A stretch of 64,000 bases of DNA from Candidatus Nanohaloarchaea archaeon (GCA_014297435.1 JACOQA010000002.1:1-64000), one strand, 5' to 3'. Positions 1 through 12,452 are shown, numbered from the stretch's first letter. Translations and numbers: made by a program. The notes: generated by a model not told the origin, from the sequence alone.

Positions 1-297
1 GACTGGGTGATGGTGCCGAACATCTACGGCATGAGCCAGTACGCCTACGAAAACATGATGACCAAACCCTACATCTCATCCTCAAACTACATCAACAAAA
101 TGAGCCACTACGAAGGCGGAGACTGGGAAAACCACTGGGATGGTCTCTACTGGAGCTTCATCAAGAAACACGAGGAGAAAATCTCCGGTATTCAGAGGAT
201 GAGATTCATGACCTCCACGCTAGAGAGGATGAACAAAGAGACAGTAGAAGAGCATCTAGAGAATGCAGAAGAATTCAAAGAAAAATTACGGCAGTAA
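1..297 (+). CDS. Cryptochrome/photolyase family protein (prokaryotic (6-4) photolyase-like), C-terminal part; truncated by window start
   Basis: Frame open from base 1: DWVMVPNIYGMSQYA...TKPYISSSNYINKMS...LYWSF...RM, typical of the photolyase-related (FeS-BCP/CryPro) C-terminus. Confidence 0.85.
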   Translation, partial: DWVMVPNIYGMSQYAYENMMTKPYISSSNYINKMSHYEGGDWENHWDGLYWSFIKKHEEKISGIQRMRFMTSTLERMNKETVEEHLENAEEFKEKLRQ

Positions 298-318
298 GAT
301 ATAATTTCTACTTCAGAA

Positions 319-1059
319 TTATTCTTCTTCCCATTTTTTTACTATATTATCAGCCAACTTCTCAGAATATCTATGACTTTTTCCTTTTCTTACTTCTCTG
401 GCTATTTCTCTAGCCTTTTGAGCACTGCTCTCAGACCATCCTTCTTTTTTCAGCCAGCTCCAGATTTCGTCCGGAGTCCAATCATAGCCATTCTCATCAA
501 GACGATGGAATCCATCCTTTAACCTATCTATATCCATCGAATGCAACATACTCGAGTTGCAAGTCAAATCAAAACTCTCCAACGCATTTTCAACTACAGA
601 ATTCAATGATGTCTCGTTTGAGATGTCTTTTCCAGGACCTGCTGTTTCAGCTTCATTTGCCTTAATCCATGGTCGAATTTCATCCATTCTATCTGAAACC
701 ACACAAACAGCTGATGCAGTATCCAAATCCTCATCAACCTTCTCTAATAGGTCTCTACCAGCATATAAAGTTAAAACCGGACCTGAAGTGTATCTGAAAT
801 TATTTCTTTCAGTAAAAAGCTTCAACTGAGCTCCGCTCCTACTAAGTTCGACACCTTCACCTTTCTTTAATCCTTTAACAGGATTTTTACCTAGAACATT
901 CTCTATTGTTCCCTCTAAATTACTTTTAACTGGAACAGCGATAACTGCTTCATCAAAATCTTCTGACTTCTGATTTAACCACAATAAACCTGCAGTTACC
1001 GCATCCTCATCAACCTGATCTACATCCATGTAGAAGTTTTCTCTACTCTCAGAACCCAT
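319..1059 (-). CDS. Hypothetical protein; C-terminal helical domain resembling DUF1889/YoaC
   Basis: 246-aa acidic ORF; VVENALE...HSMDIDRLK...F..L...G...EI...KEGW resembles YoaC by recollection only. Confidence 0.6.
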   Translation of the reverse strand: MGSESRENFYMDVDQVDEDAVTAGLLWLNQKSEDFDEAVIAVPVKSNLEGTIENVLGKNPVKGLKKGEGVELSRSGAQLKLFTERNNFRYTSGPVLTLYAGRDLLEKVDEDLDTASAVCVVSDRMDEIRPWIKANEAETAGPGKDISNETSLNSVVENALESFDLTCNSSMLHSMDIDRLKDGFHRLDENGYDWTPDEIWSWLKKEGWSESSAQKAREIAREVRKGKSHRYSEKLADNIVKKWEEE

Positions 1060-1191
1060 ATCTAATCCTTACAGAAAAATTCTATTATATTTTGTCCAGA
1101 CAGACCAGAAAAACCAGGAAAATTCCCTTCTCTACTTCTATTGTACTGTTCGTTTAATTATTCAATAAAACCCTCCTTGGAAAGTCATCAA

Positions 1192-1199
1192 CTTTATAA
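1192..1199 (+). promoter_or_regulatory. Putative TATA box of the HerA-like ATPase gene (leaderless)
   Basis: CTTTATAA about 25-30 nt upstream of ATG 1223. Confidence 0.5.
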
Positions 1200-1222
1200 C
1201 AAATTTGGTACAAGATTTATTT

Positions 1223-2731
1223 ATGTCAGAACAAACTATTAGACCGGCTAAAGAGGAAATAGATTTCCCAGTTGTTGAACTTTTGACAGGAAGAGGGTTT
1301 ATTACAGGTAAGTCTGGATCAGGTAAGTCGAACACTACCGGAGTTATCCTTGAGCAGTTACTGGAACAGAACTTTCCTTTCTTGATTGTAGATACAGAAG
1401 GAGAGTACTATGGTCTGAAGGAAGAATACGAGATACTGCATGTGGGCGCTGATGAGAGCTGCGATGTTAGAATTGGAAAAGAGCATACTGGAAAAATCAT
1501 AGATTTAGCTCTAGAGAAGAACCTGCCGATAGTTCTGGATGTTTCCGGCTACCTCAGTGACGATGATGCGAAAGATATAGTAGGAAGTGTGGTGAAAGGT
1601 CTCTTCGACAAGGAAAAGAAGATGAAGAAACCATTCCTTCTCGTAATCGAAGAGTGCCACGAATATATTCCTGAACAGATGAAGCTCGATGACTGTGGCC
1701 AGGCAATAATCAAAGTAGCCAAGAGAGGAAGAAAGAGAGGTCTCGGAGTACTAGGCATATCTCAAAGACCTGCAGATGTAAAGAAGGATTTCATTACGCA
1801 AGCCAACTATAAGATCTGGCATAACTTAGATTGGGATACGGACTTGAATGTTGTAAGAAGAGTTATAGGGAAAGACTCTGTAGACACAGTAAAGGAGCTA
1901 GAGACGGGAGAGGTCTTGATAGACGCAGACTTCCTAGATGGTTTACAGAAGGTTAGTTTCAAGGAGAGAGAAACTTTCCATGCCGGTCAGACCCCAGACC
2001 TTTCTGATTTTGAAACACCTGATCTAAAGAGTGTTTCAAGCGACCTAGTTGATGAACTGCAGCAGATAACAAAGGAAAAAGAAGAAGAAAAAGACAGGAT
2101 TTCTGAACTAGAAGAAGAATTGGAGAAGAAGAATAAGGAGATTGAGAACCTGGAAGAGAGAATTAACGATCTTAAGGATCATAACAGCTTCGCGGAGAGA
2201 TTTGTCTCAGCTATAGAACATGAAGTTGGAGATGAGGAGAGAGAGGAAATAACCCAAGAGATTGAGAACGCGAAGAGAACTTCTCTGAACCAGGAAGTAC
2301 TCGAGAAACTGGATCAGATATTGGAAAAAATCTCTAGCCCGGAGCAAAGAGCTGTAGAGCAAGAACAGAGAGAAACGGAAAAAAAGGAAGAGAATATGGC
2401 AGAGCAGAACATATTAGATAATGAAGAATTCGTTGAGGAATTAAGCCGGATTGCTTCTTCATCCAACGCCTCAAAGAAGGCCTTGATATCCACAGCCAGC
2501 TATCTTGAGAATAATAAAGGCACACAGAAGGAAATAGCTAATTTTTCAGGATATTCTGATACTACAGCAGTTTCAAAAGCGGTCAAGAGCCTGAGGGATG
2601 CAGGACTGATTGAAAAAGTAGGCAACAGGAATCGGAAAGGAGTTTATGCCCTAGCAGATGATGCTATTACAGAAATAGACTCAAGGGTTAAAAGTCGTGA
2701 AAGAGCTAAAAAGCTACAGGATAGAGTCTAA
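1223..2731 (+). CDS. HerA/FtsK-superfamily (DUF87) ATPase with coiled coil and C-terminal winged HTH
   Basis: Walker A GKSGSGKS, DTEGEY, Walker B LLVIEECH, KRGRKRG, SQRPA; heptad E/K coiled coil; C-terminal QKEIANFSGYSDTTAVSKAVKSLRDAGLIE wHTH. Confidence 0.85.
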   Translation: MSEQTIRPAKEEIDFPVVELLTGRGFITGKSGSGKSNTTGVILEQLLEQNFPFLIVDTEGEYYGLKEEYEILHVGADESCDVRIGKEHTGKIIDLALEKNLPIVLDVSGYLSDDDAKDIVGSVVKGLFDKEKKMKKPFLLVIEECHEYIPEQMKLDDCGQAIIKVAKRGRKRGLGVLGISQRPADVKKDFITQANYKIWHNLDWDTDLNVVRRVIGKDSVDTVKELETGEVLIDADFLDGLQKVSFKERETFHAGQTPDLSDFETPDLKSVSSDLVDELQQITKEKEEEKDRISELEEELEKKNKEIENLEERINDLKDHNSFAERFVSAIEHEVGDEEREEITQEIENAKRTSLNQEVLEKLDQILEKISSPEQRAVEQEQRETEKKEENMAEQNILDNEEFVEELSRIASSSNASKKALISTASYLENNKGTQKEIANFSGYSDTTAVSKAVKSLRDAGLIEKVGNRNRKGVYALADDAITEIDSRVKSRERAKKLQDRV

Positions 2732-2946
2732 TCAATTTTAATTTTTACCTAGATGTAAATGTTGAATCGTTAAAAACAAATGCAACACGATTTCTAAAAA
2801 TCCGTTAGAGGCTTTCTGTGCTTGCTTTTTGTCTTCTAATCTGATTCTGATATCAAAGATAGTTTTTTGAAGTACAGGATAGGAAGGATTTAAAAGATTC
2901 GAGGGTCTTAAATTGAACAACCTCTAGGGAGGAGGGTGAGAAAAAC

Positions 2947-3348
2947 ATGACGCAAGAAGACGAAGATCAAGACCCGCTTGAACGACTACTGTTGGACAAG
3001 AATTCCATAAACCGAGAGAAGCTTACTGAGGCACTGGAAGATCGTATTGGTATAGATCAAGATTCAGCCGATCCAGTTTACAGAGCAGGATGGCAGAATC
3101 TTTCTAACAAAAAGAAAACTACATACTTTCTTCTCTACCGAAAGGCAGTTGTTGCCCTAGGCATGGAGAAAGAAGAGAACGAGGGAATGTCTTCCCGGGA
3201 AATATCAGACGAAACTGGAGTAAACTATGATACCCTCCGAAGTATTCTCTCTCGAGCCGAATACATAGAAAAGGACGAAGAAAAAGGAGGATACATCATA
3301 CCTGGACACTCTCTAGATAGAGCAATAGAGGTGGTCGAAGATGAGTGA
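2947..3348 (+). CDS. Winged-helix HTH protein
   Basis: SD GGAGGGTGA; MSSREISDETGVNYDTLRSILSR...EKGGY wHTH pattern. Confidence 0.7.
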   Translation: MTQEDEDQDPLERLLLDKNSINREKLTEALEDRIGIDQDSADPVYRAGWQNLSNKKKTTYFLLYRKAVVALGMEKEENEGMSSREISDETGVNYDTLRSILSRAEYIEKDEEKGGYIIPGHSLDRAIEVVEDE

Positions 3349-3745
3349 TCAAAAAATCCGAAAGATAGAGAAGCGCCTCAATCAACACGAAGAAAGAATT
3401 CAGGAACTCGAGGAGAAAGTTGAAGATTCCGTGTCCCTAGACATGGAACTCAGTATGCCAGAGTTTGTAAATAACGAATGCGAGGCTTCAACACACAAGG
3501 AAAGAGTAATTTCCATCTCTTACTATCTGAAGGCGTACGAGAACCAAGACAGCTTTACAAAGAAAGATCTTGAACAGGCCTACCAGAGATGCGGTGAGAG
3601 CAGCACCAACTTTAGCGCCAGGGCATCAGAGGCAGTAAAAGATGGTTTGCTGAAGGTAGATGATAATGGGAGACCTCGACATTGGAGTCTTACAAAAACA
3701 GGAGCTGAAGAAGTAGAGACTATGCAAGGTGAGGACAATGAGTGA
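3341..3745 (+). CDS. Coiled-coil + winged-helix protein (paralog A)
   Basis: N-terminal heptads IRKIEKRLNQHEERIQELEEKV; YYLK.YEN...FT..DLE..Y and W.LTKTG.E.VE; overlaps upstream gene. Confidence 0.7.
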   Translation: MSDQKIRKIEKRLNQHEERIQELEEKVEDSVSLDMELSMPEFVNNECEASTHKERVISISYYLKAYENQDSFTKKDLEQAYQRCGESSTNFSARASEAVKDGLLKVDDNGRPRHWSLTKTGAEEVETMQGEDNE

Positions 3746-4145
3746 TGAAAGAATCGATGAGCTTGAGAACCGAGTGGAAGAACTTGAAGAGACCGTCTTC
3801 GAGACCGCTGGACCCCATACACATTCTTCCGGAAAGAAGCTTTCGGTCAGAGAATTCATGAATAACCACGATACCTCATCACATAGGAAGAAAGTCCTCG
3901 TGATAGGATACTACCTAGAAAAATACGAGAATTATCAGAACTTTACTTCCTCCGATCTAGAGGACTACTACAGGAAGGCGAAGGTTCAAGTTTCCTCAAA
4001 CACTTCTAAGTTCATTAATGATTGTGCTGAGAAAGGATGGATGATGGAAGGAGAAGAAAGGACAGAAGACAATGAGAAGACTTGGATTGTAACCCAAACT
4101 GGAGAAGAAAAAGTCGAAGGCGATTTCAAGGAAGGTGGAAACTAG
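3738..4145 (+). CDS. Coiled-coil + winged-helix protein (paralog B)
   Basis: SD GGTGAGG, ATG 3738; IDELENRVEELEE; YYLEKYENYQNFTSSDLEDYY and WIVTQTGEEKVE match the preceding ORF. Confidence 0.7.
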   Translation: MSDERIDELENRVEELEETVFETAGPHTHSSGKKLSVREFMNNHDTSSHRKKVLVIGYYLEKYENYQNFTSSDLEDYYRKAKVQVSSNTSKFINDCAEKGWMMEGEERTEDNEKTWIVTQTGEEKVEGDFKEGGN

Positions 4146-4942
4146 TGCTAACAAAAAGTGAAATTCTTTCCGAGGTCGAAGAAAGTGAGCTTGATCAAAA
4201 ACTCTTTGAAGAGCTACTTGAAGAGCATGATGGTATTCGGAAAGCCTTCAACAGAAAAGACTACGAGAAAACCTTACTGAAAACAGGCAAGTTCTGCGAG
4301 ACAACATATCAGTTGCTTCAGGAAATAAAAGACGGAGAACATAGTCAGCAACCAGATCGCACTGAGCTTACGGAGAAACTTGAGAACCTTCCAAGCAAGG
4401 ATTACCCAGAGAGCATCAGAATTCTCATTCCGCGGGTAGCAAACTCAATGTATGACTTTCGAAATAAGCGCGGCGGAGCCCATATATCCCCTATTAATCC
4501 GCAATACATAGATGCACATCTTATTGTCCAAGGATCCCGTTGGATAATCGCAGAGCTTCTCAGGGTTTACGGTGACGGAGATATTGAAGTAGAGACTCTC
4601 AGGTCACAGGTTCAGCACTTGGCAACCCGAAGCCTTCCACTTGTTGAGGAGTTTGAGGATGGGGATGTAATGGTCCTTGCAGAAACAGAATCTTGCAAAG
4701 AGGACATACTGATGATTCTGTATCATTTCTATCCTGACAGAGTTACCAATAATGAACTGGATGACATTATCTCCGGTGAATCTCGGAAAAATGTGCTAAC
4801 CAGTCTGAACCAACTCTACAAGAACAAGAACTATGTACACAGAAATGATTCAGGAGCTAAGCTAACTCAGAAAGGGCGTGAGCATGTAGAGAAAACATAT
4901 GGAGAGGAAACAAAAGAGGAACAAGTGGAGGGTGCACAATGA
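4145..4942 (+). CDS. HEPN/Abi-C-like helical domain + C-terminal wHTH (putative RNase effector)
   Basis: GTG start overlapping TAG (TAGTG) after GGTGG; GKFCE helix and YDFRNKRGGAH (Rx4-6H); C-terminal LTQKGREHVE wing. Confidence 0.6.
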   Translation: MLTKSEILSEVEESELDQKLFEELLEEHDGIRKAFNRKDYEKTLLKTGKFCETTYQLLQEIKDGEHSQQPDRTELTEKLENLPSKDYPESIRILIPRVANSMYDFRNKRGGAHISPINPQYIDAHLIVQGSRWIIAELLRVYGDGDIEVETLRSQVQHLATRSLPLVEEFEDGDVMVLAETESCKEDILMILYHFYPDRVTNNELDDIISGESRKNVLTSLNQLYKNKNYVHRNDSGAKLTQKGREHVEKTYGEETKEEQVEGAQ

Positions 4943-5457
4943 TTGGACAAGATGAACTAGAAAAGTTGGAAAAAACACAGGAAGAACTTCAGAACTCAGA
5001 TATAAAGGAGGAGTATATTCCAGAAATCTTAGGCAGTCTAGTAGAATCAGAACCAGAGATAAGCAAAATTTCGACATCAAATAATGTTCAAATCAAACAG
5101 AAGAACGAACCTATTAAGATAGAGTTAGAAGAGTCAATACTGGAAGCAGAAGAGGGTAAAGAAGCAGTCAATCATATCTTCGAAAATACAGAGGCTACCA
5201 AGAAGGCACTCACAAGCACCTTAATTCTAGTAGAGGACCAAGAAGAAGTTACAAGAGAAGACATAACAAAATTCTCAGATTACAGTGACGGTACTGAAAT
5301 TTCGAGGGCTTGCAGTGTTTTAGAGGACAGAGGCATACTGGAAATTGACTCTTCCGGAGAGGTAAACAAAATTAGTTCGACAGAGAATTGGATTCAAAAT
5401 CTAATAAAGCTACCTGAATTAAAGAAGAAACAGCAGGAAGTAATGGATTATCTATAA
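4939..5457 (+). CDS. Winged-helix protein resembling the C-terminal domain of the HerA-like ATPase
   Basis: ATKKALTST...TREDITKFSDYSDGTEISRACSVLEDRGILE versus ASKKALIST...TQKEIANFSGYSDTTAVSKAVKSLRDAGLIE; ATGA overlap. Confidence 0.7.
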   Translation: MIGQDELEKLEKTQEELQNSDIKEEYIPEILGSLVESEPEISKISTSNNVQIKQKNEPIKIELEESILEAEEGKEAVNHIFENTEATKKALTSTLILVEDQEEVTREDITKFSDYSDGTEISRACSVLEDRGILEIDSSGEVNKISSTENWIQNLIKLPELKKKQQEVMDYL

Positions 5458-5544
5458 CTCAGTATTATTGTAGTTGTAATCACTAGTGTTTTGGAGAAGA
5501 ACCAAAGACGAGTTCTGGGAAATTAAAGATACATCAGCTAGAAT

Positions 5545-6150
5545 TTAGACTATTTCAAATATGTCTTCCCCCTTTCTTCTCCAGTTTCTGTCCTCCCCCT
5601 TCGGATAACCGATTGGGAAGATGAAAATAGGTCTTTCAGTTTCCTTCAGATCTAGTTTCTCAGATAATTTCTCCTGATCAAAGCCTCTCACTGGGCAGGA
5701 GCCGATTCCCTGTGTTTTGCATGCGAGCATGAAGAATGTGGCGGGTATGACGGTGTTTCTGGTGAGCCAGCCTGTCATGAACTCGCTGTCTCTGTTCTTG
5801 TAGTCGGAGTACATTTTACGCAAGTTCTCTGCTTTCTCCTCGTCGATCCTGCCTTCCTCCAGCTTGTGTTCCAGTACCTGTTCGGCGTTCACATCTATAT
5901 CTTCATCTCCAACTAGTACTACTATCTTGTCGGCGTATCTTACCCAGCCGTTGACCGGTATTACGGAACTTGTAGCTTTCTCCATCGCCCCCTCGGAATC
6001 CAAGACTATGAACCTGTACGGCTGAAGGTTGAATGCGGTCGGCGCTTTGGTCGTCAGTTCGAAGATCTTCTCCAACTTCTCCCTCTCTACTTCTTCATCT
6101 TTGAACTTCTTGACCGATGACCAGTTCTCCATCGCGTCTTCCAGATCCAT
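5545..6150 (-). CDS. Nitroreductase family protein
   Basis: SVKKF, APTAFNLQPYRF, GIGSCPVRGFD, PIGYP motifs. Confidence 0.9.
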   Translation of the reverse strand: MDLEDAMENWSSVKKFKDEEVEREKLEKIFELTTKAPTAFNLQPYRFIVLDSEGAMEKATSSVIPVNGWVRYADKIVVLVGDEDIDVNAEQVLEHKLEEGRIDEEKAENLRKMYSDYKNRDSEFMTGWLTRNTVIPATFFMLACKTQGIGSCPVRGFDQEKLSEKLDLKETERPIFIFPIGYPKGEDRNWRRKGEDIFEIV

Positions 6151-6866
6151 TATTCCAAATCCTCCGGAGGGTATTCTTCAGGTTTTAAGTCGCCGTTTTC
6201 CACCAGTTCGTATCTCGAGCAGTACTTCTTGAGCTTAGTTTCTTCGCATGTCGGATTTCTGGCGGAGCAGTTGTTTTTCCCATGTTCGATTATCAGCATG
6301 TGGAAGCTGTTCTTGATATCATGCGGTACGGCCTCATTCAGCAGTTCATGTGCTTTTCCGTTGGAAGCTGAGAAAGGAATAAGTCTGAAACGTTTGGCGA
6401 TCCTTTCTACATGTGTATCGACCGGCATTACATCTGCGTCGAAGTGGAAGTTGAGTAAGACTGATGCGGTTTTTGGTCCGATTCCTTTGATCTCTTCAAG
6501 CCAGTCTTGCGCATCTGAATCCTCCATCTCACCAAGGAACTCTACCGAGTATTCTCCTGTTTCTTCTCTTAGTGCTTTCAATGTTCTCTGTATCCTCTGT
6601 GCTTTGGTCTGTGGCAGTCCTGCCGGATTAATCGAGTCGGCCAGTTCTTCGACTGATGCTTCCTCTATCTCTTCGTAGTCTTTGAAGTCGTTGAACAGGT
6701 TTTCAGCTGCTCTTGCTGTGTTTTCGTCTGCTACATTCTGTGATAGTATTGTGATTAGGAGTTGTCTGACTCCGTCTTTGTCGTCGTGCCAGTCTTGTTC
6801 TCCGTAAACCTCAAGCAGGTCTTGGTGAATGTTTCTGATTCTTTCCTCGGAGTTATCGAGTTTCAT
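6150..6866 (-). CDS. nth: Endonuclease III (HhH-GPD DNA glycosylase/AP lyase)
   Basis: LLITILSQN, HhH IKGIGPKTA with catalytic Lys, VDTHVER; ATG 6866 chosen as start. Confidence 0.9.
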   Translation of the reverse strand: MKLDNSEERIRNIHQDLLEVYGEQDWHDDKDGVRQLLITILSQNVADENTARAAENLFNDFKDYEEIEEASVEELADSINPAGLPQTKAQRIQRTLKALREETGEYSVEFLGEMEDSDAQDWLEEIKGIGPKTASVLLNFHFDADVMPVDTHVERIAKRFRLIPFSASNGKAHELLNEAVPHDIKNSFHMLIIEHGKNNCSARNPTCEETKLKKYCSRYELVENGDLKPEEYPPEDLE

Positions 6867-6980
6867 GGTTTTTTGTTTGCTGATTATTGGTTTATACTTT
6901 GGAATGAACTCAGACCGCACAGTAAATTGTTCACCGTGACGAGACGACACTAATTTAATAGTTTACGTAGAATCGGTTGT

Positions 6981-7499
6981 ATGGCTTACGAAATCCTTGA
7001 ATTCGACTATACAGAGCTGCACGAACTGGCTGAAGATGTAGATAACGAGGACTATTTCAGCCAAGAAGTCGAATTAAACGGTTTTGCCGAAATCCCGACG
7101 ACAGAAAATAAAAGAAACTATCTAAACCGGCTTTCCTACATCGACACATTTCTTGGATTTCTGGGTAAGAGCATGGACGGCAACTATGAAAGAAAAGCAT
7201 ACAACGAACGGACTAGAAAGCTTGGGAGAGAGGAAATAACTAAAGCCGGGGAAAAAGCTTTGCTGGAATTTGGAAGGGTCGTAGAATGGACAGAAAAACC
7301 TGTTGACGATGAAAAATGGGCCGATCACCTAAAGAAAACATATGAAGAACTCCTGAAGCCCGGCTTGGCAGAGACAATCCTCATGAACTCAGTATCAGAA
7401 GATAGAGAGCTTCAGGAGCTAGAAGAAAATACGTACGAAGACACGGAAAAAATGATTAAAAATATGGAAAAGATTGAAAGCGCGTTAAAAGAAATTTAA
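6981..7499 (+). CDS. Hypothetical protein
   Basis: 172-aa acidic ORF with TTTAATA about 25 nt upstream. Confidence 0.6.
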   Translation: MAYEILEFDYTELHELAEDVDNEDYFSQEVELNGFAEIPTTENKRNYLNRLSYIDTFLGFLGKSMDGNYERKAYNERTRKLGREEITKAGEKALLEFGRVVEWTEKPVDDEKWADHLKKTYEELLKPGLAETILMNSVSEDRELQELEENTYEDTEKMIKNMEKIESALKEI

Positions 7500-7503
7500 A
7501 TCC

Positions 7504-8283
7504 TTAGAATATTGATTTCTCTAGTTTATCAAGAAGTTCTTCCGGATTTTCCCTTTGAAACATGTTTCTGCCGACAGCTAGTCCGTTCCCACCAGCCTCG
7601 ATAACATTCTCTACATCCGATATGAACTCTTCATCCGAGCGCTTGCTTCCTCCACTCATAACGAATTTCATCTCACCCGTTACTGAGATAATGTCTTCTA
7701 CTGCTTCTCTCGAACCAGGGTACTTGCATTTGACCACGTCAGCGCCAAGCTCAAGTCCGAGCCTTGCGGCGTAAGCTATCAAATCCGGATCGTTCTGTCC
7801 TTCGTACTCACTATCGTTCTCTACCCCATGACCTCTAGGATATGCCCACATAACCACAGGAACTCCGTACCTTCTTGCTTCTTCCTGTACTTCTCTGAAT
7901 TCTTTCCACATCTCATCTTCATGATCTGAACCTGCATACATCGTGTAACCTACCGCTTCGGCACCAAGCTCCTCGACCGCGTACTTCACGGAGCACTGTT
8001 TCGGAGAGTAGTAGTCTTCACGTTGTCCAAGACTAGAGTTACCGTTAAGCTTTACCATGAGATTTACTTCATCTTCATACTCTGGGTAGTAAGTTTCTGC
8101 GACACCTTTCTGAACCGCCAGACATGTTACCGCATCATGCTTTGCGATTTCAAACACGTGTCTTGGGTCTTTGCTTTCAGGGTTTGGTTCAAAGTCTGAG
8201 GGTCCGTGTTCAAGACCGTGATCGTAAGCTAGGATTAACGAGTTTCCGTTCCGAAATATCGGAGAGTCTTGATCTGGCTTCAT
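7504..8283 (-). CDS. fba: Class I fructose-bisphosphate aldolase (archaeal DhnA type)
   Basis: LAYDHGLEHGP, VMWAYPRG, AARLGLELGADVVKCKY (Schiff-base Lys), SGG, AVGRNMFQ. Confidence 0.9.
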   Translation of the reverse strand: MKPDQDSPIFRNGNSLILAYDHGLEHGPSDFEPNPESKDPRHVFEIAKHDAVTCLAVQKGVAETYYPEYEDEVNLMVKLNGNSSLGQREDYYSPKQCSVKYAVEELGAEAVGYTMYAGSDHEDEMWKEFREVQEEARRYGVPVVMWAYPRGHGVENDSEYEGQNDPDLIAYAARLGLELGADVVKCKYPGSREAVEDIISVTGEMKFVMSGGSKRSDEEFISDVENVIEAGGNGLAVGRNMFQRENPEELLDKLEKSIF

Positions 8284-8344
8284 GTTAATGAGTTCTCTCC
8301 GGTCGTTTTTATCACCTAGCAAGGTCTTTACCGAGTTTTTATAA

Positions 8345-8800
8345 AACTCAAAAGAAATATTCAGTAAGCCAGATAGAAAACCTGGAGCGGATGAAATCTA
8401 CTGCAGCAGTTGCGGCGAGATTATCAAGAAACAAGCTGAACTATGCCCAAACTGCGGAGTCCCAAACAAAGAATCTAAACAAGACAAAAAGAGAGAATTT
8501 GAAACCACGGTTTCCGGCGACTGGTGGATAGGCGTTGCTGCAGGCACGGCTCTCTGGACCTTTCTAGTACTGCTTGCATCGATCGACCCCGTTCAAGGAT
8601 CCCTTACAGGCTTCCTGGTTCTAACCGCCTGGATCGCTACGCCTCTGGCAGCTTACTACGACATACAGTATGTTAGGGCTAACAGCGACTGGAACCCTGA
8701 TGAAGGATTATGGATGCTTTTACTGCTTCTCTGGATAATCAACATACCCGAAGGCATCGTTTACCTCGTAAGAAGACGTGAAGCTGTCGGAACTCCTTGA
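8345..8800 (+). CDS. Zinc-ribbon + membrane protein lacking a canonical start codon (absent from ORF track; may be pseudogene)
   Basis: Manual translation: ...KPGADEIYCSSCGEIIKKQAELCPNCGVPN...WWIGVAAGTALWTFLVLL...YYDIQYVRANSDWNP...YLVRRREAVGTP*; in-frame TAA at 8342, no ATG/GTG/TTG before the Zn ribbon. Confidence 0.7.
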   Translation, partial: NSKEIFSKPDRKPGADEIYCSSCGEIIKKQAELCPNCGVPNKESKQDKKREFETTVSGDWWIGVAAGTALWTFLVLLASIDPVQGSLTGFLVLTAWIATPLAAYYDIQYVRANSDWNPDEGLWMLLLLLWIINIPEGIVYLVRRREAVGTP

Positions 8801-8837
8801 AACACTAACTTAATCCTTGCGGACAAAATTCTGATTC

Positions 8838-9533
8838 ATGGAGCCCGAAGGAGGACTTCACCGAGGAGAATCTGTCAAAACTTTCTGCAGACCTAGCCCT
8901 TGGCAGTACAGCGCATGGTACGTACTAGGCGTTCTGCTAATGCCCTTCATGTTCCTCGGTCTACCCGTAATAATTATAGCTGAACTTCATAGGAGAGGCA
9001 ACAGGTTCTACGTCACCAGCGACAGAGTTATACGCGAATTCAGGTTTCTTAGCAGAAACACTGAGGAAGCCACGTTCGACCTGGTGACAGATATTTCTAT
9101 AGATCAGAGCCTTGTGGCGAGATCTCTTAATCTAGGTAACGTGAATATCAACACTGCTTCCGGAGAAGTAATAGAGTTTACCGGAGTCAAGAAACCGAAG
9201 AACCTGAAAAACACTCTTACAAAGTCTAAACACAAGGAAAGAAACTCGGTTCAGCAGGTTGAAATGGTTAACAGCGAGGGAACCTCTTACTGTCCGGATT
9301 GCGGTGAGAAAGTTTCAAACTCCAGCAAGTTCTGCTCAAACTGCGGTCACAAACTTGAAAGCTCGGAATCCAGTTCAAACCCCGATACTGAAAAAGTGTT
9401 GAAGGGCAGCATTCCTGAGGTAAAGGATGATGTCCGGAGCATGGAGTCACCTAATATAGAGGATTTTGAGCAGAAGGAGAAGACGGGTAAGAACAGGAAG
9501 ACCCTGCTCGACTGGCTTGAAAAACAGAAATAA
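8838..9533 (+). CDS. Membrane protein with bacterial PH domain and double CxxC zinc ribbon
   Basis: TM hairpin, FYVTSDRVI...QSLVARSLNLGNVNINTA (bPH), YCPDCG...FCSNCG, C-terminal E..GKNRKTLL helical motif. Confidence 0.8.
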   Translation: MEPEGGLHRGESVKTFCRPSPWQYSAWYVLGVLLMPFMFLGLPVIIIAELHRRGNRFYVTSDRVIREFRFLSRNTEEATFDLVTDISIDQSLVARSLNLGNVNINTASGEVIEFTGVKKPKNLKNTLTKSKHKERNSVQQVEMVNSEGTSYCPDCGEKVSNSSKFCSNCGHKLESSESSSNPDTEKVLKGSIPEVKDDVRSMESPNIEDFEQKEKTGKNRKTLLDWLEKQK

Positions 9534-9619
9534 CAGTCAATAAGAACTCGATACCGGAAGCTCGAGATCTTTGAATAAACGCCACTTATTTTAATTTTCG
9601 AGTTTTAACCAGTTAATGA

Positions 9620-10096
9620 ATGTTTTTGGGTTTGGATGAGACCGCTGTTAACTATATTAGCAGGAGAAGAAAGCGTTTCATAAACGAATTTATGATTTCC
9701 TATACCTCTCTTGGTTCTGTACCTGTCTCAACAGTGCTGGCGTCACTTACATATTTTTTCAGCGGTAAAACACTTTTTATTACGCTAAGTACAGGCCTTG
9801 TGACAACTTGGATCCTGGTGGAGTCGCTAAAACAGATTGTAGATAGAAAAAGACCTTCAGACCAGGTTATAGAAGCATCAGTATCATCCTCATTTCCTTC
9901 AGGTCATTCCGCAACCGCCTTCGTATTTGCCACAATTATCGCCTTGACCTTTACCGGCATAGCACCAATTCTATACTTTTTAGCATCTCTAGTCGCCTTC
10001 TCCCGGGTTTACCTAGGCGAACACTTCCCTACTGATGTTGTAATCGGATCCGGCTTAGGAACAGCTATAGGATTCCTGACCTTACTGATGATTTAA
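9620..10096 (+). CDS. PAP2 family membrane phosphatase
   Basis: K...RKRP, SFPSGHS, SRVYLGEHFPTDV. Confidence 0.9.
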   Translation: MFLGLDETAVNYISRRRKRFINEFMISYTSLGSVPVSTVLASLTYFFSGKTLFITLSTGLVTTWILVESLKQIVDRKRPSDQVIEASVSSSFPSGHSATAFVFATIIALTFTGIAPILYFLASLVAFSRVYLGEHFPTDVVIGSGLGTAIGFLTLLMI

Positions 10097-10126
10097 CATA
10101 AGAGTCTCTGTGTAAAAAAGTCTGAT

Positions 10127-10678
10127 ATGTCGCTCAAACAGTCAGACTCAGAGCTTGAAATCGGGGAAACCGCGCCAAAGTTCGAACTCGAAAACTACAA
10201 AGGCGAGAAAGTAAATCTAGAGGACCTGAACAACTACGACGGCGTTCTAGTAGTCTTCATGTGCAACCACTGCCCCTACGTCAAGGCACAGACAGAAGAA
10301 CTGAGAAAGCTGGACGATGAATTTCAGTCAATAGCGATTGTAGCAATAAACCCGAACGCCGAGACACATCCCGGCGACTCAGTAGATAAAATGAAAGATT
10401 TCATGGAAGAAAACGATCTTGAATCCGAACACTTCTACTACCTGGTTGACGAAGAACAGCAAGTTGCTGAAGAGTACGGAGCTACATGCACACCAGACCC
10501 GTTCCTCTTGGACTGGAGGCACCGGCTCTACTACCATGGTCGTCTGAACGACAAAATGGGTCCTGACCAAGAAGTGGAGGAAAGAGACATGAAAAATGTG
10601 CTCGAGGACATGTTAAAACGGAGAGAACCCCCTAAGGAACAGAAACCAAGTCAAGGATGTTCAATAAAGTGGGATTAG
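10127..10678 (+). CDS. Thioredoxin-fold redoxin (AhpC/TSA-like)
   Basis: FMCNHCPYV, YGATCTPD, YHGRLND, SQGCSIKW. Confidence 0.9.
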   Translation: MSLKQSDSELEIGETAPKFELENYKGEKVNLEDLNNYDGVLVVFMCNHCPYVKAQTEELRKLDDEFQSIAIVAINPNAETHPGDSVDKMKDFMEENDLESEHFYYLVDEEQQVAEEYGATCTPDPFLLDWRHRLYYHGRLNDKMGPDQEVEERDMKNVLEDMLKRREPPKEQKPSQGCSIKWD

Positions 10679-10680
10679 AC

Positions 10681-11331
10681 ATGAAACTAAACTTCAAACC
10701 CGAAGATTCCGATATAGAGAAAGCTAAGAACCTGATTAGAGAAGGAATTAAGGAGGCAGAAGATGTTCTGCCGAAAGAGAAGAATCTTGACTTCGGAATA
10801 GCATGGACCGAAGATAGATTTGTGAAGCAAAACATGGGCGGTGTCAGCGGCATGGCTTGGCATCCAACGTTTATTGAACTCAAGTTCAACTCGGACGTGG
10901 AGAACTGGAAAAAGAACGTTAAGGTAACAACCGTTCATGAATTCGGGCATAGCTGGTTCTATGAAAAGATCGGTCACAACCACAACGATCAGGATCTATT
11001 GATCTGGAGATATATACTCGACGAAGCATTAACCCAAAATTTAGTGGAGAAAATCTATCCAGACTCTGTAGAAAAATGGGCTCTAAAACATACGGCAGAG
11101 GATATAAAGCCGTTCTGGGAGGAGATAAAGAAAGAAGAGCTAGATAGAGATTACAGTTACCCCGACCCACTTTACATCAACCAGTCTGAAGGCGGATATC
11201 CAAACTGGCTCGGCTACTCGATGAGCTACCTGATAGGTCAACATCTTCTTGAACAGGGATATGAACTTGAGGACTTCCCCGAGCTGGAGAAAGAGGATGT
11301 GGTTAAGGCAGGTAATAAATTGTTTGGATAA
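10681..11331 (+). CDS. DUF2268-like Zn-dependent metalloprotease
   Basis: HEFGH zincin motif, downstream DEAL, GYPNWLGYSMSY. Confidence 0.8.
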   Translation: MKLNFKPEDSDIEKAKNLIREGIKEAEDVLPKEKNLDFGIAWTEDRFVKQNMGGVSGMAWHPTFIELKFNSDVENWKKNVKVTTVHEFGHSWFYEKIGHNHNDQDLLIWRYILDEALTQNLVEKIYPDSVEKWALKHTAEDIKPFWEEIKKEELDRDYSYPDPLYINQSEGGYPNWLGYSMSYLIGQHLLEQGYELEDFPELEKEDVVKAGNKLFG

Positions 11332-11343
11332 GAACTTCGAATT

Positions 11344-11925
11344 ATGAGTTACAGGATTAAACCCTCGACAGAGGAACTGAAGAAAACCCGGAAAGCGATT
11401 TCAAGCGCTCTTGACACGTGTGAAGCTGTCTTTGAGCCGATGGACTTTGAGGTTGAGACCCTTTTCTCTACAAGAGACGAAGTTGCGGCAGCAGCAGATA
11501 TCGAAGCATTATTCGTAACTGTTGATCCGGACTCAGAGCTTTTCGAGGAACGTGTTTTCTCCGAGATTGCGCATGCCTACTCCGAGATGATTTTTTTGCG
11601 GAGAAGAGGCGAAGAACTGATGTTCGAATGGCAGGAAGTCTTGATGTACGCATTCTCCAGGCTTAACTCCCAAGCAGTCCTAGACACTGATTCAAGTCGC
11701 GTGGATGTGAACCAGGCGAAGATCGCCGAGTTCTGGGACGAAATAGAGGAAGACCTATCTGACGAGCTTGTGGAAGAAAATCGTTTGACAGAGGAGATCA
11801 AGATTAAAATCGGAGAACTTATTGCCCCTGAACTTAACGAAATCAGAGATATTGAGCATTTCCACAAGGCAAAGCGCTCAGAAGTTTTAAAGGTTGGAAA
11901 CCGTTTATTCGGTGAAGAAAAATGA
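11344..11925 (+). CDS. Degenerate paralog of the upstream metalloprotease
   Basis: Collinear similarity (FWDEI/FWEEI; VLKVGNRLFG/VVKAGNKLFG) but HExxH replaced by SEIAH. Confidence 0.6.
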   Translation: MSYRIKPSTEELKKTRKAISSALDTCEAVFEPMDFEVETLFSTRDEVAAAADIEALFVTVDPDSELFEERVFSEIAHAYSEMIFLRRRGEELMFEWQEVLMYAFSRLNSQAVLDTDSSRVDVNQAKIAEFWDEIEEDLSDELVEENRLTEEIKIKIGELIAPELNEIRDIEHFHKAKRSEVLKVGNRLFGEEK

Positions 11926-12452
11926 CAAAAGTCTTTCTCGGACGTTTTCAGCCACTCCATCTCGGACACAAGAACGTTATCGAGAACCAAGACGATCTAG
12001 TGGTTGCTGTAGGAAGTTCGGGAAAATCGGGCGAGGAAGAAAACCCCTTAAGTTTTGAACAGAGGAAAAGACTGATCAAGGACTGTTTTCCTGATGTTGA
12101 AGTCGTTGGAGTTGAAGATACTGAAGATGATGTCGAATGGCTTCGGAACTTACTCGAAAAGACTGGAGCTGACACTATTCTTTCGAGAAATTCAAATGTA
12201 AGAGCGATAGTTGAGAATTCAGATCGAGATGTCAAAGTTGTTAAGCAAGAGCTTTACGACGAGGAGATCTATTCCGGAACCGAAGTTAGAAGAAGAATAC
12301 GAAGCGGGGAAGAGTGGCGTTATCTGACACCGCCTTGTTGCAAAGAAAGCCTGGAAGAGTTCCTAGAGGATATCAAAGATTCTGGCATACAGCATGAGTT
12401 TGAGCCCGGCTGGAAACGAGAGAACGCGAGTTACGACACCGCTGAGAAATAA
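11922..12452 (+). CDS. nadM: Nicotinamide-nucleotide adenylyltransferase
   Basis: GRFQPLHLGH, ENPLSFEQR, SGTEVR. Confidence 0.85.
   Translation: MTKVFLGRFQPLHLGHKNVIENQDDLVVAVGSSGKSGEEENPLSFEQRKRLIKDCFPDVEVVGVEDTEDDVEWLRNLLEKTGADTILSRNSNVRAIVENSDRDVKVVKQELYDEEIYSGTEVRRRIRSGEEWRYLTPPCCKESLEEFLEDIKDSGIQHEFEPGWKRENASYDTAEK

Follow-up and report, generated by a model that had tools for sequence, protein, structure and literature searches.

The stretch of DNA analysed here, called the window throughout, comprises the first 64 kb (64,000 nucleotides, nt) of contig C8 from a Candidatus Nanohaloarchaea archaeon genome (GCA_014297435.1, JACOQA010000002.1:1-64000) of ~1.0 Mb, 15 contigs and 99% completeness. 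Six co-directional genes identified by translation of open reading frames (ORFs), named A to F (1223-5457; Table 1), encode a P-loop ATPase (A), a protein combining a HEPN-like domain with a winged helix (E), and four further winged-helix proteins (B, C, D and F). Comparison with related loci in archaea and bacteria shows that the conserved unit is E together with one or more winged-helix partners, not the six-gene set. The island carrying these genes is read here, with slightly better than even confidence, as a conflict module of the abortive-infection/toxin-antitoxin kind, in which E and its partner(s) form the core and the ATPase is a lineage-specific addition. The window begins at the contig end and the operon lies only 1.2 kb from it, so the upstream context is limited.

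Table 1. Genes of the operon and neighbouring features, with positions in the window
Feature	Position	Strand	Description
A	1223-2731	+	FtsK/HerA-superfamily P-loop ATPase (DUF87) with coiled coil and C-terminal winged helix, 502 amino acids (aa)
B	2947-3348	+	Winged-helix protein with N-terminal beta-hairpin and helices, 133 aa
C	3341-3745	+	N-terminal coiled coil and C/D-type winged helix, 134 aa; paralogue of D
D	3738-4145	+	N-terminal coiled coil and C/D-type winged helix, 135 aa
E	4145-4942	+	N-terminal HEPN-like four-helix domain and C-terminal MarR-type winged helix, 265 aa; predicted RNase effector
F	4939-5457	+	Acidic N-terminal region and winged helix of the type at the C-terminus of A, 172 aa
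Orphan gene	319-1059	-	246 aa, divergent from the operon; candidate membership only
Accessory island	282-5554	.	5.27 kb, variable chromosomal slot
Conserved flank, outside the system	5545-6950	-	Nitroreductase and HhH-GPD DNA glycosylase (Pfam)

An earlier note made from this DNA alone had described six co-directional genes, the last five translationally coupled, and the junctions bear this out. B/C and C/D overlap by 8 nt each (3341/3348 and 3738/3745), D/E by 1 nt and E/F by 4 nt, with the GTG start codon of E (4145) lying within TAGTG at 4143-4147 and F starting in ATGA at 4939. Ribosome-site motifs of the GGAGG/GGTGA type stand 5-12 nt 5' of B, C, D, E and F, in agreement with the strong Shine-Dalgarno motifs claimed for the coupled genes; inspection of the junctions gave no such motif before A, where TTTATAA lies ~27 nt upstream. 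A and B are spaced by 215 nt. The island is richer in AT than its surroundings, as had been thought, with a guanine-cytosine (GC) content of 40.3% against 45.1% for the whole window. The statement that every product contains a winged-helix module likewise stands, the evidence being profiles or identity for A and F, profiles or structure for C, D and E, and the topology of an AlphaFold model for B.

In the AlphaFold model of E (predicted local distance difference test, pLDDT, 80.6), a beta-hairpin linker connects a helical N-domain to a winged helix at the C-terminus. The N-domain is built from helices at residues 18-36, 40-63, 89-107 and 119-142, with an insert helix (72-80) between helices 2 and 3. 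The motif RNKRGGAH, in which the earlier note had seen an Rx4-6H signature, reads R106-x6-H113, with R106 closing the helix 89-107 and H113 placed in a loop. R106, G110 and H113 are invariant in 21 close relatives of E, and R106, H113, E52, W133 and D123 are conserved at 90% or above across 91 distant relatives, so the motif is a genuine feature of the family. The residue following R106 is N or S in the alignment of the 21 relatives, in which E52, located in helix 40-63, is also invariant; distant members have E-x3-R/K at this place, the form (Ex3[KR]) often found in HEPN domains, and nanohaloarchaeal members E-x3-Q. As HEPN hallmarks, the available text of PMC3710099 gives a polar residue after the arginine, a conserved acidic position within helix 2 and insertions separating helices 2 and 3, and E matches all four sequence hallmarks described there, including the Rx4-6H-type motif.

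Structural comparison is compatible with this assignment but does not by itself decide it. In a search against representative structures, the top match of residues 12-144 was the HEPN protein 2hsb (Z 10.9, root-mean-square deviation (rmsd) 3.7, 120/126 residues), and Z 9.3-10.5 was reached by LinB, 3c18 and sacsin HEPN domains. For residues 178-265, MarR-type winged helices scored Z ~10, for example with an rmsd of 1.7 A over 70 residues. A Foldseek check of E against the PDB gave nothing at expect values (E-values) of 1e-3 or below, differing from the Z-based search that returned 2hsb, and a search of PDB sequences with the E profile found mainly winged-helix proteins (E-values of 0.0027 or higher) and one match to the N-terminal region (E-value 0.017). 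No significant family for E was found in Pfam, NCBIfam, PHROG or PADLOC. The nearest named atlas clusters, Hypoth_Ymh (score 0.78) and Abi_C (template-modelling score 0.40), serve as leads only. Motif, model and structural match together make it very probable that E joins a winged helix to a catalytic HEPN domain from a family that has no model so far, which would make E an RNase; the earlier description of E as HEPN-like thus holds in motif and, less decisively, in fold.

An exhaustive search showed that the E family contains 699 representative clusters at E-values of 1e-3 or below and 383 at 1e-10 or below, spanning bacteria and archaea, and nearly all members are ~250 aa long. Longer or fused forms were absent among 7999 candidates at the 1e-3 threshold, which is weak evidence, and no member was found in viral contigs.

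The winged helix present in every product also accords with a DNA-binding regulatory or chromatin-organising set, in which the helical domain of E would be non-catalytic and serve ligand binding or dimerisation. Non-catalytic HEPN domains such as MtlR and the nucleotidyltransferase-fused forms are described in the available text of PMC3710099, and the Z-scores of E among helical bundles are non-discriminating. The same text reports that features of the catalytic motif are lost in non-catalytic HEPN domains, whereas the catalytic R and H, the polar residue after R and the acidic residue of helix 2 are conserved across the 91 distant relatives of E. Moreover, the patchy distribution and the embedding in restriction-modification (R-M) operons described below fit conflict genes rather than housekeeping regulators, and a purely regulatory set is accordingly regarded as improbable, the least likely of the alternatives considered.

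The partners of E are small proteins that fall into recognisable families. C and D are paralogues (37% identity in the family alignment) that consist of an N-terminal coiled coil and a C-terminal domain of ~90 aa. C is 31-32% identical both to the D orthologue and to the C copy of another nanohaloarchaeal genome, G039, and D is 34% identical (E-value 5e-20) to a gene adjacent to E in a bacterial Ignavibacteriaceae genome. The C-terminal domain of C/D is homologous to the winged helix of E itself (hhalign 91.8%, E-value 7.6e-7), and it also matches the C-terminus of the bacterial partner (hhalign 90.2%, E-value 1.6e-6). No Pfam family matched the bacterial and Ignavibacteriaceae partners. The AlphaFold model of B (pLDDT 83.4; predicted template-modelling score 0.77) has the topology H-beta-H-H-wing-H; Foldseek against the PDB gave nothing at E-values of 1e-3 or below, and among the matches listed most were MarR-type or other winged-helix proteins, all with E-values of 0.025 or higher. 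Genes resembling B occur at the E loci of G039, G037, G049, G004 and the Ignavibacteriaceae genome. Residues 63-135 of F are 41% identical to residues 393-464 of A, and an F orthologue of 73% identity closes the operon of G039. Two winged-helix types can be distinguished in the operon, C/D/E and A/F, because C and D match the domain of E and F matches that of A. Matches of SMEK_N to D (E-values 0.0075 and 0.021, below the cut-offs) were put down to chance or to a generic likeness among winged helices, and CARF3 matches of A and F in PADLOC covered the winged helix alone. A complex prediction for E with D scored 0.00, which is evidence in neither direction.

Thirteen E loci, the window and 12 others, were compared, their neighbours being scanned selectively. 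An adjacent, co-directional small partner gene is present at all 13. In G039, A, B, C, D and E (the last in two frames) are followed by three additional small genes, one of them a third C/D copy, and by F. In this genome the E orthologue (contig C90, 89% identity) is split into overlapping frames at 3048-3656 and 3634-3816, reflecting either a frameshift or an assembly error. G049 encodes a B-like protein, a C/D protein, a second B-like protein, one small protein, another C/D protein and E, followed by A, which overlaps the stop codon of E. G037 holds hsdM (N6_Mtase, E-value 1.5e-65), B, C/D, E and hsdS (Methylase_S, E-value 1.2e-20) on one strand. In G004, a C/D gene is followed by a 129-aa gene alignable with the B family (an alignment without a significance value) and by E, and the locus adjoins a McrB-like gene (MrcB_N, E-value 3.4e-37) and an Eco57I/MmeI-type (type IIG) R-M gene (E-value 1e-48). 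The Woesearchaeota locus consists of a 162-aa partner (C/D hidden Markov model (HMM), E-value 3.7e-12) overlapping E, beside a type II restriction endonuclease (E-value 7.2e-85) and a methylase (E-value 4.3e-40) and with an integrase 3 kb away.

The bacterial loci have a simpler layout. The Ignavibacteriaceae genome contains a B-like gene, two C/D genes (one being the D relative mentioned above) and E, and six further bacterial genomes, including Methylophaga, Ferrovibrio and Wenzhouxiangella, have one partner of ~170-210 aa adjoining E. Two bacterial loci adjoin the PADLOC candidates PDC-S31 (E-value 2.8e-57) and PDC-M63A (E-value 1e-13). In one bacterial genome (G748:C1, 8900-10397 and 10445-15716), E and its partner were observed beside a DUF6932/PDC-M63A-like gene and an IS91-family transposase, and nearby genes, judged by eye from their translations, resemble a mercury-resistance operon. 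Among sampled bacterial genomes, the E family was detected in 3/401 and 2/400, one further genome being unscored. Overall, recognised defence genes neighbour E at 5/13 loci, a figure that is a floor because only selected neighbours were scanned. The proposed co-occurrence of the genes elsewhere therefore stands in part: E is accompanied by a C/D-type partner at every locus, and the ATPase is present at only three of the 13.

The horizontally acquired island occupies a variable position. A single contig (G064:C17) of a genome of the same genus (88% complete) aligns at 87-88% with window positions 1-281 and 5555-8460; in it, 1.4 kb with a single unrelated 438-aa gene, flanked by the nitroreductase and by the gene that matches window 1-281, stands where the window has 5.27 kb; the island is accessory, since the congener carries this replacement in the same slot. 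The congener gene (reverse complement, 3520-4836) matches no Pfam family, gives a marginal match to CARF_HEPN in PADLOC (E-value 0.0066) and ends in a C-terminal stretch, RNKRNKIMH, resembling the HEPN motif. The slot at 282-5554 may be a hotspot for HEPN-type cargo. The E family is found in five of 70 nanohaloarchaeal genomes, the window's own included, and in neither of two congeners; strong C/D matches (E-values of 5e-31 or below) occur in the same five genomes and one remnant. The locus is thus not core in relatives, which removes one way in which the proposed system could have failed. The remnant (G051:C1, 6510-8068, a complete genome) comprises a C/D-like gene that is truncated and an F-like gene that is frameshifted, beside a tRNA-Leu and an ORF of 161 aa whose integrase SAM-like match is weak (E-value 0.005). 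Because this genome holds the decayed 3' end of an operon, the gene set has evidently been subject to both gain and decay. The 246-aa orphan gene was found only in the window's own genome among the 70 and has a weak match to DUF1889 (E-value 7e-4), below the cut-off.

Downstream of the island, the nitroreductase (Pfam, E-value 1e-23) and the HhH-GPD glycosylase (E-value 2.3e-17) are syntenic with the congener at 88%. Upstream, a 98-aa fragment has no Pfam match; it may resemble a photolyase. The earlier placement between housekeeping repair genes is therefore upheld for the downstream side, with its glycosylase and nitroreductase, and is tentative for the upstream fragment. No convincing att-like repeats flank the island, and no tRNA was found in window positions 1-12000. 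A 231-aa ORF further downstream (8838-9533, +) with predicted membrane helices and a zinc-ribbon-like CxxC...CxxC stretch is unrelated to the operon.

The ATPase is of a different origin. In translation, A has the Walker A motif GKSGSGKS, the Walker B motif LLVIEECHEY and SQRP, and coiled-coil-type matches cover residues ~270-430, all as the earlier note had read them. Its ATPase domain starts near residue 20 and belongs to DUF87 (E-value 5.3e-11), and matches to MarR_2 (E-value 1.3e-4) and HTH_27 (E-value 1e-3) at residues 427-473 are both below the Pfam cut-offs. PADLOC models for HerA (E-value 1.9e-24) and mad8 (E-value 2.5e-16) match within the ATPase domain, further models, CedD and HerA, fall well short of their cut-offs, and one terminase-annotated PHROG is matched too. 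Judged from the aligned segments, these matches are best taken as generic FtsK/HerA ATPase likeness, the PADLOC HerA models aligning mainly in ATPase parts, for example at model positions 364-549 of 576. Defence HerA proteins have a HAS-barrel N-terminal domain. Such a domain was not detected in A in general scans, which did not include a HAS-barrel-specific search. The earlier view of A as a defence-type HerA is not sustained: besides the restricted profile matches, there is no Sir2 or DUF4297 neighbour, and A belongs to a DUF87 family of haloarchaeal plasmids and proviruses. Gating of E by a DNA translocase, as the earlier note proposed, is therefore conjectural.

Over residues 12-283, A shares 56-62% identity with DUF87 domain-containing proteins from 21 haloarchaeal plasmid records, and another record gave a partial match. 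Over the same residues, identity to a protein on an IMG/VR viral contig of 63% GC is 48%; the phage collection gave no match. The same ATPase/coiled-coil/winged-helix build was recognised in two plasmid homologues and one nanohaloarchaeal homologue, a fourth and shorter homologue being without a winged-helix match. Six of these 22 plasmid records have their A-like DUF87 ATPase no more than ~3 kb from the record start or end. Generic matches to A occur in all 70 nanohaloarchaeal genomes and orthologue-level matches (E-values of 2e-86 or below, 45-90% identity) in six. Three of the six (G000, G039 and G049) have the orthologue beside E; elsewhere it lies in a G004 region with small ORFs and a resolvase, in G062 amid UvrD-like helicase genes, and on a short contig. 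In the partly masked G062 locus (contig C3, 3268-12350), the A-like ATPase (50% identity) has two UvrD-like genes upstream, read only from their sequence, and, downstream, a gene whose 917-aa UvrD helicase product includes a PD-(D/E)XK nuclease domain (Pfam). A Halobaculum plasmid and the nanohaloarchaeal region G004:C3 are both laid out as ATPase, small ORFs and resolvase, which hints at a mobile-element backbone common to haloarchaea and their nanohaloarchaeal symbionts. The available text of PMC4158269 names a HerA-like arCOG, possibly a viral pumping ATPase, as one of the most frequent families in archaeal 'dark matter' islands. Taken together, the matches make A a mobile-element ATPase that came to join the HEPN module in some nanohaloarchaea, in two different gene orders.

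The same evidence raises the question of whether the whole island is a remnant of an integrated plasmid or provirus, with A as the maintenance, transfer or packaging ATPase of the element and B-F as variable cargo, for instance an addiction toxin-antitoxin pair stabilising it. The closest relatives of A, on the 22 plasmid records and the viral contig, and the shared layout of the Halobaculum plasmid and G004:C3 speak in its favour, as do the decayed C/D-like and F-like pair of G051 by its tRNA-Leu and weak integrase-like fragment, the Woesearchaeota pair 3 kb from an integrase, and the bacterial pair near IS91 and mercury-resistance-like genes. The window island, however, lacks an integrase, a replication gene, att repeats and a tRNA, and the core pair is flanked by housekeeping genes in several bacteria and embedded in a type I R-M operon in G037, a placement typical of defence cargo. 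Addiction and defence are also compatible with each other. This explanation is unlikely as a full account, though it carries more weight than the other alternatives to the favoured reading.

A also joins E in only three of the five E-bearing nanohaloarchaeal genomes and at none of the other eight loci (3/13 in total), which suits two unrelated modules lying side by side in a variable slot, A (with F) and B-C-D-E, without functional coupling. The 215-nt gap before B may contain a separate promoter, A is missing from 10/13 E loci, G062 and G008 have an A orthologue but no E, the A orthologue of G004 is on a different contig from E, and the winged helices of A/F and C/D/E are of different types. 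Nevertheless, A adjoins the module in two arrangements, upstream in G000 and G039 and immediately downstream in G049, where it overlaps the stop codon of E, and F is coupled to E through the ATGA junction despite its kinship to A. Mere juxtaposition is consequently held to be somewhat less probable again than a plasmid or provirus remnant.

Several findings weigh against the favoured reading of a conflict module built on E and its partners. Unrelated GIT1 four-helix bundles reach Z 10.0-10.1 with the E N-domain, against 10.9 for the HEPN match, and the fold alone is not decisive because generic bundles lie within one Z unit. Abi_C matches were obtained for only 6/91 E-family members (best E-value 0.021) and not for E itself, and hhalign of E with five Abi_C proteins was insignificant (5.7%, E-value 0.0067), with the R..H motifs in register. 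Four proteobacterial partners have no direct match to the C/D HMM at E-values up to 1 and are linked to C/D because of the profile-profile result alone. Eight of the 13 loci showed no recognised defence neighbour in the selective scan. Finally, A is set apart from B by its gap, and its relatives sit mostly in plasmid or provirus backbones without E, so that A may serve a mobile element and not the module. Against these stand the pairing of E with a partner at all 13 loci, the conserved HEPN motif, the defence neighbours at 5/13 loci, the patchy and accessory distribution, and the adjacency of A to E in two gene orders, and the module is a plausible new antiviral or addiction module because its core family also occurs in bacteria, often beside restriction systems.

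A mechanism can be proposed for such a conflict module. The partners (B, C and D in the window, a single ~180-aa protein in most bacteria) would oligomerise via their N-terminal coiled coils and hold E inactive, probably in a DNA-associated state, through the common winged-helix domains. An invader-linked trigger, such as foreign DNA, loss of the partner or failure of a neighbouring restriction system, might free or re-arrange E, whose dimers would then cleave RNA and arrest growth. The core may, in some nanohaloarchaea, have recruited the plasmid-type DUF87 ATPase A together with F, a stand-alone copy of the winged helix of A. A and F could act as a DNA-engaging sensor or regulator layer, which we take as the most likely role and as the least supported step of the scheme; they could also have an element-maintenance function or be unrelated neighbours. 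The analysis shows the gene structure, the domain homologies, the accessory nature of the island, the adjacency of the partners and the defence neighbourhoods; the RNase activity of E, its inhibition by the partners, the trigger and the part played by the ATPase are inferred. A bolder version, tentative and distinctly less probable than the general reading, would make E and its partner an undescribed cross-domain defence system in which partners bearing a copy of the winged helix of E scaffold and gate it, elaborated in nanohaloarchaea into a multi-subunit machine of paralogous coiled-coil winged-helix proteins, whose plasmid-derived, DNA-translocating ATPase and winged-helix decoy would survey DNA and unleash the RNase when an invader is met.

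The interest of the locus lies partly in its host. DPANN archaea such as nanohaloarchaea are credited with few recognised defence systems in the available text of PMC12988326. Any 5-kb accessory operon is notable in nanohaloarchaea because their genomes are tiny. The E family shows the hallmarks by which defence genes are nominated, namely patchy distribution, embedding in an R-M operon, and defence or mobile-element neighbours. That the partner has a winged helix in common with the effector points to domain mimicry or joint assembly on DNA, a regulatory principle little explored for HEPN nucleases, and experiments could start easily from the two-gene version of bacteria. Were the cross-domain gated HEPN machine real, it would be among the first immune systems of several genes to be typical of DPANN symbionts.

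Among known systems, AbiJ/Ymh (Abi_C PF14355, Hypoth_Ymh PF09509) offers a likeness to E in motif: five Abi_C proteins share an R-[NT]-x5-H motif with a six-residue spacer. HEPN proteins of this type, as solo members and as fusions, are reported in operons with R-M systems in the available text of PMC3710099. The E family, however, has no significant profile match to them, its HEPN domain is N-terminal and followed by the winged helix whereas AbiJ has accessory domains at its N-terminus, and E has an obligate separate partner gene. PrrC and RloC are HEPN proteins described as frequent in R-M operons in the same text, and the relative module between hsdM and hsdS of the type I R-M operon in G037 recalls them. 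They are, in contrast, single proteins with a fused ABC ATPase, whereas the ATPase of the E module, where present, is separate and of the FtsK/HerA type, and the operon in the window has no adjoining R-M system.

The HerA pairs (Sir2-HerA and DUF4297-HerA) and the mad8 component of MADS resemble the operon in that an FtsK/HerA-superfamily ATPase adjoins a nuclease-type effector. Neither Sir2 nor DUF4297 was matched in B-F (Pfam, PADLOC), A carries a coiled coil and a winged helix instead of the defence HerA architecture, and no mad model in PADLOC matches B-F or the 246-aa gene, the mad8-like match of A standing alone. HEPN-MNT (HepT-MntA), which is common in archaea according to the available text of PMC12988326, likewise pairs a HEPN toxin with an adjoining neutralising partner in a compact module of two genes. 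The partner of E is a winged-helix protein and not a nucleotidyltransferase, and the Pfam scan of A-F found no nucleotidyltransferase domain.

The closest mechanistic precedent for the restraint of E is the type IX retron, in which, as far as the available text of the preprint 10.64898/2026.07.14.738597 goes, a winged-helix protein covers the active site of a HEPN nuclease and attenuates its toxicity. Both pair a HEPN nuclease, in E a predicted one, with a separately encoded winged-helix protein, a likeness of arrangement. The retron HEPN is described in that text without the canonical Rx4-6H motif, whereas E has the motif and itself bears a winged helix homologous to that of its partner. None of the seven island proteins matched a reverse transcriptase in the Pfam scan, which did not extend to a gene for multicopy single-stranded DNA or non-coding RNA.

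With PADLOC v2.0.0, the best match among B-F was that of the F winged helix to CARF3 (E-value 8.9e-4), and B-E gave nothing below an E-value of 0.014; Pfam likewise lacks a family for E and for its partners. No description of the gene set was found in the literature; a recent naming is possible in supplements or in catalogues newer than PADLOC 2.0.0, which fell outside the scope. Within these bounds the composition is not that of a named system, as the earlier note had supposed, since B, C, D and E have no PADLOC 2.0.0 model. The logic of a HEPN effector with a neutralising neighbour and the embedding in R-M operons are known already, whereas the E family, the partner with a winged helix like that of E itself and the archaeal form with an added ATPase appear to be new.

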